From a virus (taxonomy: Duplodnaviria; Caudoviricetes): DNA of 64,000 nt. This document shows, piece after piece, positions 2,213 through 61,200 of the stretch (positions within the stretch are counted from its first letter, which is position 1; each line of letters begins with the position of its first letter). Both the position numbers and the translations under genes were made by a program. Location of the stretch: the IMG/VR virus record IMGVR_UViG_3300032312_001422, positions 160,001-224,000 of that record; one strand, 5' to 3'. The notes beneath the pieces were generated by a model. The model did not search any database, was not told the origin of the DNA, and saw nothing but the letters and a program-made list of their open reading frames with translations.

Positions 2213-2241
2213 TTGACATAAAGTATTATTCCTATTATAAT
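2213..2241 (+). promoter_or_regulatory. Perfect sigma70 consensus promoter
   Basis: TTGACA (2213-2218), 17 nt spacer, TATAAT (2236-2241), intergenic, upstream of the HNH gene. Confidence 0.85.
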
Positions 2242-2272
2242 ATAATTATTATCAATTAAAAGGATGTTGATT

Positions 2273-2644
2273 ATGAGACCGTTATGCGTTAATCATGGAT
2301 GCAAACGACTAGCTATGGAAAGTCATAAAGACGCCGCCGGCAATGTTCGATATCGTGTACATTGCGGGCATTGCCAAAAAGCCAGCTACGGCGGCCATTC
2401 GCACAGTCCTGGGGTCACTCCGTTTAAGACCGGTCGGTGCAGCAATGATGACGGTCACTTAGGATTTAACTGTTGCATTGATTATAAAAAAGCACCCTGG
2501 GCAGTTGGCATGACAGAAATTGATCATATCAACACAGACCCGCACGATAATAGATTAGAAAATCTACAAGAGTTATGTCCAATGTGTCACAAAAGAAAAG
2601 GCCGAGTAAATGGCGACTATAAAAGAAAAACGTATCTTGCTTAA
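2273..2644 (+). CDS. HNH endonuclease-like protein with N-terminal Cys clusters
   Basis: EIDHINTDPHDNRLENLQELCPMCH HNH motif plus CxxxxC and CxxC motifs. AAGGA RBS spacing favours ATG 2273 over 2264. Confidence 0.75.
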   Translation: MRPLCVNHGCKRLAMESHKDAAGNVRYRVHCGHCQKASYGGHSHSPGVTPFKTGRCSNDDGHLGFNCCIDYKKAPWAVGMTEIDHINTDPHDNRLENLQELCPMCHKRKGRVNGDYKRKTYLA

Positions 2645-3182
2645 AGAATCATTGAACAAGTTTACCAAAGCAAACTATACCAAAGTTAAACGCAGTACAA
2701 ACACTCATTGTGAAAGTTTAGCCATTACCGTTTCGGAACTTGAGCGACTAATTGGTCTGTATAGAGGTAATCATACTCCGCAAACTGCTCGGTTGATTCG
2801 AGACAGTATAGATCATTGGATTCGTAGATACCACGGATATGTGATTGAGGGAGGCATTGGTGCTCATTACAGCCAAGTGGGCGTAGACTTAAAGAACTGT
2901 ATTTTTGAGCATGTTATTCCTGCTGCCAAAGTTCGTGACATGCTTATACAAGGCGTATTAACTGCACCGCAGGCATTGAATACTCCCACTTGCTTTATTA
3001 GTAAAACAAACGATCAGTTGTTGCGTGATCATAAACGAGTGAGTACCAGTCCCGATTATTGGAATTTCTTCAAGCGTTACGATATATTTGACAATGTAGA
3101 ATTTTGCACGTATAATGGTGTTAGTATAGATCAGACAACCTGGACATTGGAAGATCACTTTAATTTCTTTAAGAATATATGA
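2610..3182 (+). CDS. Putative His-Me finger (HNH-like) nuclease-domain protein
   Basis: FEHVIP...PTCFISKTNDQLL...FFKRY resembles EHxxP-type His-Me finger domains. Weak evidence. Confidence 0.4.
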   Translation: MATIKEKRILLKESLNKFTKANYTKVKRSTNTHCESLAITVSELERLIGLYRGNHTPQTARLIRDSIDHWIRRYHGYVIEGGIGAHYSQVGVDLKNCIFEHVIPAAKVRDMLIQGVLTAPQALNTPTCFISKTNDQLLRDHKRVSTSPDYWNFFKRYDIFDNVEFCTYNGVSIDQTTWTLEDHFNFFKNI

Positions 3183-3946
3183 TACCACTAATAACACAAA
3201 ATATAGCGACTAACATAGCCGGGCATACTCAGCAGGCATGGACCTATGGTGTGCCCAATGGCGATACTGGAGAAATTGTTGTTGCCTGTGGAATTAAACC
3301 ATTCTACGACGGTGCCGAGCAAAAAGGTGGTTCAACTACTATTGTAGATGTCAAAGTAGATCATGTAGCATACGATATTAAATGTAGAGATGTGCTGGGC
3401 ATTTTTACTCGAGAACCAAGTGCTAAACAAAAATCTGCCGATCAAAATTATTATAAGGTAGATGAAAATTTATTTGTACGAGTACCTAAGTCGGTTGAAA
3501 GCCCAGTTAGACGCCCTAGTGTAGACCTTGAAAACTTTCAAGGTAACTGCCAAACTATTATTACAGAACAAATACAAGAATATAAAGACTATGCTGATAG
3601 AACTACCGCAGATGCAGGATGCACTGAATTGCGTAGTTTGCTTTTTCTGTATGGACGTAATAAAGGATATAAAGCTATCTACATAGAAGAACAACCGTTT
3701 AATACCCCAACCCCTACTAGTTTTGATATCTATAAAAACACTAAAGGTAAACCGGCGGCATACTATGCACGTGATCACAAACTATTATACAAGTTATTAG
3801 ACTACAGCAAAGGTAGTACTAATTTTGTTAAACGATTTGATTGCACTAACGGATACCTATTTGTATGGCCTGATAAATTTTTATCTAATAAAATCACAGA
3901 TATCATTGAGTGGAAAGTTCACGGAAATCATTCATTAATAATATGA
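3179..3946 (+). CDS. Putative PD-(D/E)xK restriction-endonuclease-like protein
   Basis: GDTGEIVVA ... IVDVKVDHVAYDIKC fits the E...D...DxK catalytic spacing. Visibly AT-rich. ATGA overlaps at both ends. Confidence 0.4.
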   Translation: MIPLITQNIATNIAGHTQQAWTYGVPNGDTGEIVVACGIKPFYDGAEQKGGSTTIVDVKVDHVAYDIKCRDVLGIFTREPSAKQKSADQNYYKVDENLFVRVPKSVESPVRRPSVDLENFQGNCQTIITEQIQEYKDYADRTTADAGCTELRSLLFLYGRNKGYKAIYIEEQPFNTPTPTSFDIYKNTKGKPAAYYARDHKLLYKLLDYSKGSTNFVKRFDCTNGYLFVWPDKFLSNKITDIIEWKVHGNHSLII

Positions 3947-4995
3947 GTTACTTAGAAGAAATTAAAAAGAAATACGATATTACAGATTACAAAGAAGCTA
4001 GTGTAGCGATACCCGAGCTTCCTACTGATGGTATTGTATTAATTGTAGGCACATCAGGCTCAGGTAAAAGTACTATCCTACGCAGTTTAAATAATACTCA
4101 TGCTCCTACCATTAGCCCATGTGCTGATGTTATCAGTAACTTTTCTACTGCTGAGCGAGGAGAAGAATTGTTACTGGCTTGCGGATTGCGTAGTATTCCT
4201 GCTTGGTTCCGAGCACCTAATACATTAAGTAATGGCGAGTACCATAGATTTGAAATGGCCTTGTTCTTAGATCAGGGTATCAATATTGTTGACGAGTTTA
4301 CCAGTGTTGTTGATCGTGATACTGCCAAAAGTCTTGCCCTAAGCATTCGTAAGTTTTACGATCGTCAAGGTAGTACCAATCCGTTGTACATTGCCAGTTG
4401 CCATAGAGACATAGTAGAATGGTTAGATCCAGACTACGTATATGACACAGATCTCTGTGTCTTAGAAAATCGGAGGTCACCCTTTCGACTGGGGACAAGA
4501 CCAGAACTTGCACTCACCATCAAAAGCTCAAGTGTCGACTATTGGAGATATTTCAGTAAGTATCACTATCTAGACACAGAAATTAGTAAGAGTGCTCATT
4601 ACTATGTGTTACTGTTAGGCGACAAGCCCATTGGCTTCCATGCCGCAATACATTCAACTAACAGAGATATTCATTCGTACTGGCGTGGTCATCGTACAGT
4701 AATCCTACCCGAGTTTCAGGGCATGGGTATAGGCACAGCATTTAGCGACGCTATTGCTGAAATATATGTGAGCCGTGGTCTAAGATACTTTAGTAAGACT
4801 GCTCATCCCAGCTTTGGTGAACACAGAGAAAAGTCAGACTTATGGCGCCCTACATCAATGAATCGGAAGAGTCGTGTGGGCAGTTACTTGAACAAGGACG
4901 GTACGGCACGTGAGATGAAGGGCTATGGCGGTACAACCACTGTTCGCGATGCTTATAGGGTTTGTTACAGCCATGAATACATTGGTAAGAAATAA
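3943..4995 (+). CDS. ABC-type ATPase fused to C-terminal GNAT (Mom-like) acetyltransferase
   Basis: Walker A GTSGSGKST, signature LSNGE, Walker B IVDEF, H-loop SCH. GNAT motif A RTVILPEFQGMGIG. Start at the ATGA overlap (MSYLEE). Confidence 0.8.
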   Translation: MSYLEEIKKKYDITDYKEASVAIPELPTDGIVLIVGTSGSGKSTILRSLNNTHAPTISPCADVISNFSTAERGEELLLACGLRSIPAWFRAPNTLSNGEYHRFEMALFLDQGINIVDEFTSVVDRDTAKSLALSIRKFYDRQGSTNPLYIASCHRDIVEWLDPDYVYDTDLCVLENRRSPFRLGTRPELALTIKSSSVDYWRYFSKYHYLDTEISKSAHYYVLLLGDKPIGFHAAIHSTNRDIHSYWRGHRTVILPEFQGMGIGTAFSDAIAEIYVSRGLRYFSKTAHPSFGEHREKSDLWRPTSMNRKSRVGSYLNKDGTAREMKGYGGTTTVRDAYRVCYSHEYIGKK

Positions 4996-4996
4996 T

Positions 4997-5749
4997 ATGA
5001 AAAAATTTGACAGTTTGGTCGTACTTGGTGATAGTTGGTCTTGGGGATCAGAGTTGTCAGAGGATACTCGAGTGGCCAGTAGATTTGATACGCTATTAGG
5101 AAACCAACTTGGACTAGAATGTGTCAATTTATCTAGAGAAAGTGCATCAAATTTTTGTCTTAAATGGCACTGGCTTGATTGGATTTCAACCAACCCTGTG
5201 TATAAAAATCCTTTGGTGATTGTGGGCATCACTGGACCTAACCGTTGGTTAATTTATAATAATCAAGCAGAATTTTTTCAAGAAGGCGGTGGCGGCCGTT
5301 TAGTAAACGAAGACGTAGTAATGTCCAATTGGGGCAACTCTCAAAAAACTGGCGGCTTTATAAGAGCATTTCCCAATTACATCGATGCACCAACTCCAGA
5401 AAAAACACGCTGTCAAGAAAATTTCTATCGTTACAATTACAACGATACCATGGCAGAAATTTATGCCATATGGGAAATTAATCAAATAAACTCAATGGTA
5501 CAATCATTTGGTGGCCAAGCAATATTTTGGTCTAATTTTCACAAATATACACAGGTCAATATGCCTTGGTGTCAACCCTTGCTAAAAACAATTCATTTGG
5601 TTGACGATCTGCAACCAATTGCAACCTTATTAAGAGCTGAAAGAAACATGCTGTGCCGTGGCGGGCACCCAAATGCAGACGGCCACAAATATATACAGCA
5701 TAGATTAATAAAATATATAGCTTCTGTTGCTGAAAAACAACACCCGTAA
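4997..5749 (+). CDS. SGNH/GDSL-like hydrolase or acyltransferase (copy 1 of 9)
   Basis: Block I VVLGDSWSWG, block II SRESASN, C-terminal GGHPNADGH. Start ATG 4997. Confidence 0.65.
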   Translation: MKKFDSLVVLGDSWSWGSELSEDTRVASRFDTLLGNQLGLECVNLSRESASNFCLKWHWLDWISTNPVYKNPLVIVGITGPNRWLIYNNQAEFFQEGGGGRLVNEDVVMSNWGNSQKTGGFIRAFPNYIDAPTPEKTRCQENFYRYNYNDTMAEIYAIWEINQINSMVQSFGGQAIFWSNFHKYTQVNMPWCQPLLKTIHLVDDLQPIATLLRAERNMLCRGGHPNADGHKYIQHRLIKYIASVAEKQHP

Positions 5750-5773
5750 CCCCCTGTTTTTAGGGGGTTTTTT
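5748..5773 (+). terminator. Rho-independent terminator
   Basis: Perfect 8 bp stem AACCCCCT/AGGGGGTT with a 6 nt loop, followed by a T run, at the stop of the SGNH gene. Confidence 0.8.
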
Positions 5774-5789
5774 GTACTTAAAATTCCGG

Positions 5790-5818
5790 TTGATCCATAA
5801 ATCCATTAAATGTATAAT
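5790..5818 (+). promoter_or_regulatory. Sigma70-like (early) promoter
   Basis: TTGATC-N17-TATAAT. Shares ATTAAATGTATAAT with the promoter at 8456. Confidence 0.7.
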
Positions 5819-5848
5819 GTATGTATAGTGATTAATAAGGAGCTAAAA

Positions 5849-58200: not shown

Positions 58201-61200
58201 TTGTTAATCCATCCATGCATTGGCAAAAGACCGTCAATCGCTGTCACAGTTGATACTTTAGATGATATCAATTTATATACTGCCGCTTCACTAACAACCG
58301 GGCTGGTTGCAATCAAGTTAGACAATGCTGCTGTGTCTTTTAGTTGTACTGTAACTGTTAAGTCGTTGACAACATCAACTACTTTATAGATGTTGTCATA
58401 ATTGGTACTGAAATTTTCTAAGATAGAATTATCAAAGTATGCAACTTGAAATCCTTTTAGTATCAAAAGATCTCCAACTTGAAATGGATGTCGATCTGTA
58501 AACAATAACTGTGCATAATCATCCAACACATAAGTCAGTGTTGTGGCAGAAATGTCAGTTTCTGTAACACGATACACATTCCATTGATTACCTGTGTCTT
58601 TGGCTGTCCAAATTTTGCTACCAACGCCCACGTCAGGATTTTGATTGTAGTCGTTGATATTAAAGATTGTTAAATCTGCATCATCAACGTGTACATATCC
58701 TGCGGTAGGCAAATCATTGACGTAAAAATCTTTATCTCTGTTGCTGTATATTGCAGTACTGGTGTTAGACAAATTGCTAGAATTGTAAACATTTGATATG
58801 GTCAAATTGGCATTGGCCTGTAAATTAACAATTATGTTGCCAGCAGAGTACGTGTTACCCAGCGTGAATGCCACAGGATTGGTGTTGAAAACAGATTGGT
58901 CTAATACAAATTCTTTAAACTGATTACCATCTAGGTCTCCATACTCACCAACCTTGAATCCCCACTCTTCAAAAATTGCTATATTACCTGTTACGTTGTC
59001 AAAGTTGCCTTTGGTCAAGGCAGTGATAGAATTTAGTGTGCCTTTTTCTTTGATAAGACCCTGATAGAATTTTGTTTGTGTTGCAGTAGTAAGTCCCAGG
59101 TCGGTTAGATAATCTCTTGGTCGGAATCCAATTAGGCCTGCACTGAACAGTTGTAATGTTTCATTGGCCGGCGGCTGGTCAACGTTGTAAATGTTTTCAG
59201 ATTGTTGTGCTAATAGCCCCAGACTTGGCAGTAGTCCAGTTTTTAAATCAGATTCTTGAATTTGTGCCCAATCTGCTACATTGAATTTTGTAGTTGCTGG
59301 TATAGAATCAAGTGCGGTATAATAGTTATTGTTAAAAGTAACAATATCTCCCACTTGATAATCTGTGTCAGCAGTCCAATTAACAACATTTGTGGTGTTG
59401 TACATGTATCCGCTGGCACTGAGTGCGCCAGTCCAGCGTCCAGTTTTGGCCCCCGATAAATTTAATCGATACTGTCTTATTCCTTGTGATGGCACATAGA
59501 TAATGTCGCCAAAGTCACTTTCATTGTCAAATACTAACACATGCTCAAACTGAACTAAATTTAAACTGGCAAAACATATACCTGTTCCGTTGAGTGTGGT
59601 TATACCAAATTGATTGCCAGATGCAAAATTTTCAGTTCTTACAATATTAAAATTTCCACTCTTGATAGGCAAGAAATTTTGATCCAATATGCGGCCTGAA
59701 TTTAGTGTATTGGTTATTTCATCTACCACGGTACCAGATGTTTTCAATATCAATCGATTTGTTGCTGGATTTAATACCAGTACGGTGCCTACTTCCCAAC
59801 CTTGTTGACTCCAGTATAAAAATTCTTTAACGCTGGTTCTAAAGTTTTTTACTTCTTGCAAATCTCGGTCAAATTGATCAAATACAAATCCAATGCTTTC
59901 AAGATATCGTTCATAACTGATCAAGAAATCACTCAATTGTTGTATGTTACGATAGGTGGTGCCATATGGTACCAAAATTGTGCGACTTGTGGTGTCTTGA
60001 TACAGTTTAGCACTAACATCTCCCACTGTGACAGTTTCTGCATTGCCATTGGCAACGCTGGGCAAAATTGTAAAGAATGGATCACTGGTGTTGTATCCAA
60101 CCACACTATATCCAGTGTTGGTACGTTGTACTATTACTGCACTATAGGCAACTACGGCCACAGGTATTGATTTATTTAAATATACATCATAGTTGCTGTC
60201 AGGAATAATAACTCCAGAACGTTTGGCTCCCGGAGTAGTTTGTTCAGCTGTAACTGTTAAAATATTTTTGTCAGTGAATCCGCCAACTTTGTAATTTAGC
60301 TTAACACTTAAATTTTCTAAATAACTAGAAATTTTTTCAACTGGATCTATACCAACGTTTTTAATCACATCAGCAATCCAATTAATGTATCCGCTGGTGC
60401 GGTGTACTACGCCAGTGCGTGTGTCACCATTGATTTTTAAATCAGCCGGGTTAATTTTTTCATTGGTAGCACTACTAAATTGTCCAGTAATGTCGCTAAC
60501 ATAGAATCTTGATGTATCGTATTGTGTTCCAAAGTAACTAGCAGGTTTGGCCATAGCAATAGCCATTTGTACAGCAAATGGGTAGTCACTGCTACGTATC
60601 CATGCTGTTTCTACAGGTCCTTCTTGACCAATCACGTAGTTGTTGCCGGCGGCGGTTAAATTATACTGTTTAACTATGTTGATATCAGTTGGTGGCAACA
60701 AATTTCCGGCGCTGTCTACCGGAATAACCTGAGTTAGTCCAGGGCGAACAAAACGAGCATCAGTATAGGCATTGCCATTGTTCCAGACATAGCCGGCTTC
60801 TAAATCTTCCCAAAGTGTGAAATTACCTCGAGTGTACGGTGCTGAACCGTAACGAGTTTTCCACCAGGCAGGTTCAAATCCAAAGCCCAACATTTCCCAT
60901 GGCGCTCTATTGGGTTGATCGGTATCATACCAATAATTATAAATTGCTCTCCAGTTGCCTTGTAACGGCTTGTCATCTACTGTATCTGTAAATTTTTCAT
61001 AGTTCCAGGTCCAACTGTTGTTGGCATCATACCAACTATTGGTAGTGTAGTCTACATTGTTTGTGCCCGACCATTGTAAAAAATTTCGTGATAGAATTTG
61101 TATAAACTCATCCCGCGAGTATTCGGTTGTTCTAAAGCGTCCGGGAACAATATCATATAAATTGATAATATTTTTAGTATAATCTGCTTTGATATTGTTG

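Follow-up and report, generated by a model that had tools for sequence, protein, structure and literature searches.

Organization of the locus

Five tightly coupled genes, designated g1 to g5, form a compact transcription unit within a 64-kb stretch of viral DNA, referred to here as the window (Table 1). The window covers positions 160001-224000 of a 288,815-bp IMG/VR virus record (IMGVR_UViG_3300032312_001422, here termed G000), which is estimated to be ~80% complete, and the source is an uncultured freshwater jumbo phage. No near-identical DNA was found among 50,697 GenBank phage records, and the relatives of G000 are uncultured metagenomic contigs of up to ~357 kb. An earlier reading of the window (the original prediction) had taken the unit for a possible restriction-modification (R-M)-type or inter-phage defence module. 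We found that the unit lies in an island that is a recombination mosaic, and that one of its genes, g3, encodes a predicted restriction-endonuclease-fold protein which probably acts on GCGC sites in unmodified DNA.

Gene order was surveyed in ~180 related loci by tblastn, open reading frame (ORF) calling, ORF clustering, and reading of the orders. The loci compared comprised, from IMG/VR, 13 anchored on g3, 80 on g2, 77 on g4, and 2 on g5, in addition to metagenome contigs.

The perfect TTGACA-17-TATAAT promoter, the five coupled genes, and the terminator described in the original prediction were all recovered: the genes overlap or abut one another on the plus strand, with ATGA overlaps at g2/g3 and g3/g4, and the unit ends in a 9-bp hairpin with a T run. 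Perfect promoters of this type occur twice in the 64-kb window, compared with 0.14 expected from shuffles. The second, which the original prediction had missed, lies inside g2, and the unit is therefore readable from two starts. Near-perfect promoters (11 to 12 of 12 positions) were present in the final 130 nt of g2 at 6 of 11 g2-g3 junctions and at 10 of 103 other junctions. Promoters inside the 3' end of g2 would drive whichever cassette comes next. Consensus or near-consensus sigma-70 promoters were seen in this part of g2 at two recurrent positions in L013, L015, L016, L118, L112, L132, L028, L029, and other loci.

Table 1. Features of the g1-g5 transcription unit and its downstream boundary (positions in the window)
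Feature	Position	Strand	Description
Promoter before g1	2213..2241	+	Perfect sigma-70-type TTGACA-17-TATAAT
g1	2273..2644	+	123 aa from ATG 2273; upstream ATG 2264 also open
g2	2610..3182	+	Overlaps g1; homologues suggest TTG start at 2637
Second promoter	3088..3116	+	Perfect; in the 3' part of g2, 63 nt ahead of g3 start
g3	3179..3946	+	255 aa; ATGA overlap with g2
g4	3943..4995	+	ATGA overlap with g3
g5	4997..5749	+	Begins 1 nt past g4 stop
Intrinsic terminator	5748..5775	+	9-bp GC-rich stem (5748-5769), loop of 4, T run; overlaps g5 stop
Terminator-plus-promoter cassette	5700..5830	+	~130 nt, PeSL-like; marks the end of this unit and the beginning of the following one (promoter 5790-5818)

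Predicted restriction-endonuclease fold of g3

A sequence match to g3 was found neither in Pfam, PHROG, PADLOC, NCBIfam, or PDB nor by tblastn against the 50,697 phage records, and its 33 close homologues are metagenomic. An AlphaFold2 (AF2) model built with homologues reached a predicted local distance difference test (pLDDT) score of 92. When this model was compared with known structures using VIA-align, 19 of the 20 top rows were restriction-endonuclease-fold nucleases, mostly of type II, and the best matches, led by ThaI, included ThaI itself (3ndh; Z score of 10.1 over 177 aa), HinP1I (1ynm; Z score of 8.1), and HhaI (6uke; Z score of 6.0). Further fold matches were NaeI, SfiI, SwaI, NhoI, EcoRV, MspI, Hjc, and DpnI. 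The best Foldseek row was HhaI, and the language-model neighbours of g3 were the ThaI, SmaI, DpnI, and HinP1I families. Besides, four residues (E32, D57, D66, and K68) were invariant in 23 aligned homologues sharing 53-80% identity with g3; of these residues, D57 and the D66-x-K68 pair fall on a modelled beta hairpin (E58-60/E63-71). By its model, g3 is a protein of the type II restriction-endonuclease fold with a D...D-x-K motif of the PD-(D/E)XK type. The fold search at 3179..3946 thus bears out the PD-(D/E)xK-like label that the original prediction had given to this gene.

In comparison with the type IIP enzymes ThaI (CGCG), HinP1I/HhaI (GCGC), and MspI (CCGG), g3 has the same fold over nearly its whole length and is alike in size (~250 aa) and in the D...D-x-K motif. 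However, it is without detectable sequence similarity to these enzymes, no adjoining methyltransferase was found, and its gene belongs to an early operon of a lytic-type giant phage. The new part is a putative sequence-orphan family of the restriction fold that lacks a methylase and for which genome statistics predict GCGC as the target.

GCGC avoidance in phages carrying g3

GCGC, the HinP1I/HhaI site, and CGCG, the ThaI site, were the two most under-represented tetranucleotide palindromes in the whole genome of G000, with an observed-to-expected ratio (O/E) of 0.52 each. The site avoided by g3 carriers, GCGC, is that of HinP1I and HhaI. When G000 was left out, the pooled GCGC O/E was 0.41 in sequences with g3 and 0.80 in those without it, whereas other palindromes barely differed. 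Per locus, the median GCGC O/E was 0.40 with g3 (n = 20) and 0.77 without g3 (n = 145; Mann-Whitney P value of 1.2e-6); the corresponding values for CGCG were 0.51 and 0.79, and those for the control palindrome GGCC were 0.82 and 0.88. The same division was observed with complete or long genomes, both among those carrying g3 (G000, 0.52; G006, 0.45; G001, 0.38) and among those lacking it (G012, 0.81; G010, 0.80; G008, 0.87). GCGC was also the most differential of the 136 tetramers between the two groups, and the top three pentamers all contained GCGC. Among gene clusters found in at least six loci, g3 was the best correlate of GCGC depletion (P value of 2.5e-6), followed by a clade-marker ATPase (P value of 2.5e-4).

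Several observations weigh against a direct link between g3 and the loss of GCGC. These statistics ignore phylogeny, and several of the loci are duplicates of one lineage. The closest relative without g3 (G009, 51% complete) is equally depleted, with a GCGC O/E of 0.49, and 16 loci without g3 also have a GCGC O/E below 0.5, which makes a clade or host effect a possible cause of the depletion. Moreover, 191 GCGC sites remain in G000, so that protection by modification must be assumed.

The first of these points lead to an alternative in which the depletion results from HhaI/HinP1I-type restriction by the host or from sub-clade ancestry, and g3 is incidental, perhaps a captured or inactive passenger. 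The depleted G009, in which g3 is absent from the available 220 kb, and the 16 strongly depleted loci without g3 agree with this, as does the loss of another tetramer from a phage without g3: strong host-driven avoidance of a 4-mer does occur in this group. Nevertheless, we regard this alternative as fairly improbable, since g3 is the single best gene correlate, with a P value two orders better than those of clade markers such as MoxR, the depletion is present in g3 lineages of differing GC content and palindrome profiles (e.g., G001), and all 23 aligned homologues retain the catalytic residues.

The tetramer in question is ACGT, for which the complete 344-kb relative G010 (the record behind L144; loci L240-L257) has an O/E of 0.03 while its other palindromes are ordinary. 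Such a loss is indicative of very strong selection exerted by a nuclease specific for ACGT.

Methyltransferase search and deazaguanine genes

A cognate methyltransferase was found neither alongside g3, whose neighbours are g2 and g4, nor elsewhere in the 288.8-kb, ~80% complete record, which gave no match to PF00145, PF01555, or PF02086 (C5, N4/N6, and Dam-type methyltransferases). On the other hand, the record carries, at a distance of 5-9 kb upstream, genes for FolE, QueD, and a phosphoribosyltransferase. Derivatives of 7-deazaguanine are known to shield phage DNA from restriction (PMC6884629), and the dG+ DNA of phage 9g, in which one-quarter of G is replaced, was only partially cut by HhaI, HinP1I, and BstUI (PMC5567051). 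Such partial protection would leave selection against residual sites. Because GCGC depletion, the lack of a methyltransferase match, and the deazaguanine genes come together, g3 probably encodes an orphan endonuclease of the GCGC type that is directed at unmodified DNA.

Two results are unfavourable to the part of this interpretation that concerns deazaguanine. A Pfam search of G000 for a transglycosylase (TGT) gave no match, and FolE is present in relatives both with and without g3, so that the deazaguanine link does not discriminate between them. Deazaguanine genes were accordingly rejected as a means of telling g3 carriers from non-carriers; besides FolE, a candidate 306-aa neighbour gene was considered, but it was in G007 only.

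The region just upstream of the window (151460-159273 of G000; 8460-16270 of L106) contains, in addition to FolE, the phosphoribosyltransferase, and QueD/PTPS, a class II aldolase-like gene and a gene for a TauE-like membrane protein.

Distribution of the five genes among related phages

The island that holds the unit is hypervariable, whereas the flanks on either side of it are conserved (U72-c5-U151 upstream and D106-D62-D111-MoxR ATPase downstream); a rubrerythrin, a cell-wall hydrolase, and a TylF-like methyltransferase are among its other occupants. Among the ~180 loci, all five genes occurred together only in G000. The order g2-g3-g4 was found in three contigs (G000, L013, and the complete genome G006/L118), and only in these does g3 lie exactly in the gap between g2 and g4; in 13 of the 80 g2-anchored loci, g2 is followed directly by g4 with a gap of 9-12 bp. 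In 7 of 13 viral loci, g3 comes after g2; in the others, it comes after unrelated genes (c101 and c184) or the HNH gene g1. The contigs G001-G005 (up to 113 kb) carry g3 without g4, and the syntenic island of the 113-kb contig G001 reads g2-g3-D106-MoxR. Conversely, g4 is without g3 in all but 2 of the 77 g4-anchored loci, with varied neighbours, and in five large genomes (G009-G013), three of which (G010-G012) are 93-100% complete.

The same picture was obtained at the DNA level. L013 is 94-95% identical to the window over positions 1-2466 and 3138-4995, whereas positions 2467-3137, which comprise the 3' end of g1 and g2, could not be aligned, and the two encoded proteins are 56% and 39% identical, respectively. 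g4 keeps 75-90% identity while its neighbours change. Because every pairing is facultative across the ~180 loci, the five genes are separately inherited cassettes and not a fixed system, and the island is a recombination mosaic of cassettes rather than a dedicated nuclease-plus-GNAT system. Co-occurrence of the genes elsewhere, by which the original prediction was to stand or fall, was largely not found, with g3 and g4 mostly apart.

The sporadic distribution and varied contexts, with g3 placed after g2, c101, c184, or g1, might also be those of selfish, free-standing homing endonucleases like T4 mob/seg, in which case g1 and g3 would have settled beside the conserved genes g2 and g4, would spread by cutting relatives that lack the nuclease, and would have no role in defence or host takeover. 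Consistent with this, g2 and g4 abut in relatives just where g3 sits here, the allelic replacement tract adjoins g1, and g3 matches the fold of a PD-(D/E)XK homing endonuclease, I-Ssp6803I (Z score of 5.0). It is, however, difficult to see how enzymes with long recognition sites should drive the genome-wide loss of a 4-bp palindrome, and GCGC depletion tracks g3, the best fold matches of which are short-site type IIP enzymes. Homing is quite likely for g1 and less so for g3, and we hold it unlikely that it accounts for both genes.

The ABC ATPase-GNAT protein g4

g4 matched ABC_tran (2.5e-5) and Acetyltransf_1 (1e-5) in Pfam and phrog_11143 over its full length (residues 3-349; 4.3e-77), and its translation shows Walker A, a signature-like LSNGE, Walker B, and the acyl-CoA motif QGMGIG. 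Homologues were found in 91 phage records and in the 77 IMG/VR loci, in the latter at 33-98% identity. By these signatures, g4 joins a soluble ABC ATPase to a GNAT acyltransferase in one protein; the original prediction had likewise proposed an ABC ATPase-GNAT fusion. The same two-domain architecture is present in the phrog_11143 proteins of Tenacibaculum phage pT24, Aeromonas phage PX29, phiE255 (gp29), and Leptospira phage LE3 (gp17). Such proteins, for example that of pT24, have been predicted to place an acyl group on a DNA base in a reaction not yet characterised (PMC7824862, citing Iyer, Zhang, Burroughs, and Aravind 2013); the view of g4 as a Mom-like DNA modifier is an already published prediction. 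Mom of Mu is a GNAT-fold enzyme that modifies adenine, and g4 likewise has a GNAT-superfamily domain proposed to act on DNA, but g4 matches general GNAT families and not a Mom-specific one, and Mom is without the ABC ATPase domain carried by g4.

In LE3 and Arthrobacter phage EastWest, a ParB-like gene (~180 aa) precedes the ABC-GNAT gene, whereas g3 and g2 take this place here, and hmmsearch detected no similarity of g2 or g3 to ParB. The idea that g2 is the counterpart of this ParB-like partner was dropped, as neither hmmsearch nor hhalign gave a positive result. In the unrelated small phages phiE255 (L185), LE3 (L186), and EastWest (L187), the ABC-GNAT gene overlaps the upstream ParB-like gene of ~180 aa. 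phiE255 gp28 (54 aa) matches the C terminus of EastWest gp74, and a formyltransferase-family gene follows phiE255 gp29.

The slot just upstream of g4 is occupied by the HNH gene g1 in six loci, by the HNH-motif gene c242 in three, and by g3 in two, and these motif and profile assignments mark it as an apparent hot spot at which nuclease genes are found. It is possible that g4 is more loosely linked to the nuclease gene, of whatever kind, that adjoins it upstream. Judging from motifs only, c242 (L121-L124) carries an LDHIVPRSKGG HNH motif, c110 (L120/L123/L125) and c135 (L111/L137) have E-x-K strands, and c88 (L107/L113) encodes a small protein with a DPxxGDG motif resembling an S-adenosylmethionine-binding one.

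These features bear on the proposal of a dedicated R-M-like or inter-phage defence module, in which g4 would acylate the phage's own DNA and shield it from the g1 to g3 nucleases. Such a module would suit the ATGA overlap of g3 and g4, the recurrence of g2-g3-g4 in G000, L013, and G006/L118, and the repeatedly nuclease-type gene ahead of g4. The phiE255 ABC-GNAT gene, moreover, is located after the tail-fibre genes, which is also the place of mom in Mu. ABC-GNAT proteins are, besides, published candidates for DNA-acylating enzymes (PMC7824862). Nevertheless, most g3 lineages lack g4, including that with the G001 island; all but 2 of 77 g4 loci lack g3, which is also absent from the three genomes that are 93-100% complete; and g4 is conserved while its neighbours are swapped. 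We therefore consider a dedicated module decidedly improbable. A PADLOC defence-family scan of the unit gave generic HNH and P-loop matches only. Thus, the original prediction was largely right about the parts, with four of its five domain guesses upheld, but not about their integration into one module, since the genes assort independently.

The g1 and g2 products

g1 matched Pfam HNH_3 with an E value of 1.7e-5 (24.8 bits, exactly at the cut-off; PF13392 and PF01844 were tested) and PHROG HNH families with a best value of 6.6e-8. In an alignment of 17 family members, the motif EIDH...N...NLQELCPMCH contains the catalytic His, the Asn, and the C-terminal CxxCH. From this motif and these profiles, g1 is a canonical small HNH nuclease, in agreement with its original assignment. 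It lies ahead of g2 or g4 in a minority of related loci.

g2 belongs to a widespread phage family with at least 277 homologues (141 cluster representatives at 50% identity). Its AF2 model (pLDDT of 93.9) has a long N-terminal helical hairpin followed by a C-terminal alpha/beta domain. In a diverse alignment reaching down to 19% identity, Y87, H101, P104, R156, Y157, and H183 are invariant, and the pattern of a few invariant residues suggests an enzyme-like protein. The original prediction had called g2 His-Me-like. Within the same alignment, however, N124 and D135 vary, while E/D100-H101-x-x-P104 is conserved. No significant match was found in Pfam (including 32 family members at E values of up to 5 and 10 distant members), in PHROGs (including 34 diverse members), or in PADLOC, NCBIfam, and a PDB profile search, and hhalign against the g1 HNH family gave a probability of 0.2%. 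The search of the model for a nuclease fold (2610..3182) likewise yielded no significant row in the PDB with Foldseek, in the VIA wide search, or in the Atlas shape search, in all of which the N-terminal hairpin dominated and the C-terminal domain was barely probed. Foldseek against BFVD gave two sub-threshold rows (E values of 0.03 and 0.15; probability of 0.92-0.93), both uncharacterized phage proteins that give no clue to function, one of them from Synechococcus phage S-T4. The claim of three consecutive nuclease-like ORFs consequently holds for g1, with its HNH motif, and for g3, with its modelled fold, whereas the His-Me label of g2 found no support.

g2 is 39-80% identical across the clade in which g4 is 75-90% identical. 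Since g2 is also replaced amid 95% identity, it is either unusually fast-diverging or often swapped, as expected of a conflict-related protein. The replacement is seen when L013 (7198-7953) is set against window positions 2467-3137: the two phages are 95% identical on either side of this tract, in which the 3' end of g1 and g2 are exchanged completely. In most relatives (58 loci), the gene directly ahead of g2 encodes a ~400-aa protein (clusters c1/c2, ~350-430 aa; e.g., L060:6737-7939), which may be the usual partner of g2. This protein had no match in Pfam or PHROG and was absent from G000 by tblastn.

g5 and the terminator-promoter cassette

The original prediction had listed g5 as an SGNH gene. 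G11-D12-S13 and H224-P225 are invariant in the g5 family, and its Atlas feature neighbours are DUF6071/Lipase_GDSL clusters (0.97), with DUF6071 on 39-40% of their members. The profile side of this assignment is weaker: g5 itself had no Pfam match at an E value of 1 or below, and 5 of 19 relatives matched Lipase_GDSL_2 weakly (best E value of 0.002). Taken together, the GDS and HP residues and the neighbours weakly suggest an SGNH/GDSL-like (DUF6071-like) hydrolase as a candidate. Other weak g5 paralogues exist in G000, and two tandem DUF6071-like genes, distant relatives of g5, lie in the region of FolE and QueD (151460-159273 of G000).

Positions 4996-5722, which contain g5, are precisely absent from L013 and L118, the two nearest relatives, and the g4-g5 pair was found elsewhere only in L107/L140 and L108. 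g5 is a lineage-specific insertion. The right edge of this indel (5722/5723) is the 5' edge of the terminator-plus-promoter cassette, which consists of a conserved box, a stop codon, the terminator hairpin, a promoter (TTGATC-17-TATAAT), and a conserved TATGTATAGTG. Full copies of the cassette are present in G000 at 60363-60492, 83533-83662, and 165703, with partial promoter copies at ~5 more sites. In T4-type phages, repeated promoter/stem-loop (PeSL) cassettes drive modular shuffling (PMC2839356). Like the PeSL cassettes, which belong with the hyperplastic regions known from T4-type phages (PMC2839356, PMC4122927), the cassette described here combines a strong sigma-70-like promoter with a stem-loop terminator, is repeated, and is placed where non-essential ORFs have been inserted, deleted, or replaced; all of these features (promoter, terminator, repetition, and indel boundary) were found. 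It differs in that there are three full copies here, and recombination at the cassette is suggested by one indel boundary.

Proposed role of the unit and its significance

On balance, we consider it somewhat better than an even chance that this is an early unit in a hypervariable island, built of independent cassettes, in which g3 most likely represents an orphan GCGC nuclease directed against unmodified DNA. According to this proposal, the unit would be read early by host RNA polymerase from its host-type promoters, so that g3 would be made early and would most likely cut GCGC, or a site containing GCGC, in host or rival-phage DNA that is unmodified. The DNA of the phage itself may be spared by the ~2-fold loss of GCGC together with modified guanines from the putative 7-deazaguanine pathway. 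g4, a conserved resident, would independently modify nucleic acid, probably with ATP and acyl-CoA, and g1 would act as a mobile, variably present HNH gene, while g2 and g5, the latter perhaps an SGNH-like esterase, would have roles separate from each other and from the rest. The five genes would have been assembled by recombination in an island bounded by the repeated terminator-promoter cassette.

Endonucleases II and IV of T4 (denA and denB) degrade the cytosine-containing DNA of the host, and phage DNA containing hydroxymethylcytosine is spared. The logic proposed here is the same, with an early nuclease acting on unmodified DNA and a base replacement protecting the phage's own. The folds and targets differ, however, and the protector here would be a putative 7-deazaguanine derivative in combination with partial site avoidance. 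It is possible, though doubtful at present, that g3 founds a family of phage-borne, methylase-less GCGC endonucleases, whose modification arm consists of 7-deazaguanine (possibly with ABC-GNAT acylation) and site avoidance.

The locus also indicates that nuclease and modifier genes neatly arranged between a promoter and a terminator in a giant phage may look like a system and yet be a recombination mosaic, which calls for caution in mining phage genomes for 'defence islands'. Furthermore, g2 stands out in the survey as an enzyme-like protein that is swapped rapidly and is common in related phages. Above all, g3 is a concrete candidate, a protein of 255 aa without sequence relatives among known enzymes and with a target predicted from genome statistics. 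If active, it would represent a new restriction-enzyme family and would illustrate how a phage can combine a nuclease used for attack with DNA containing deazaguanine. If the proposal is true, R-M logic would operate here with the phage, not the host, as the restrictor, destroying the DNA of its host or of rival phages.

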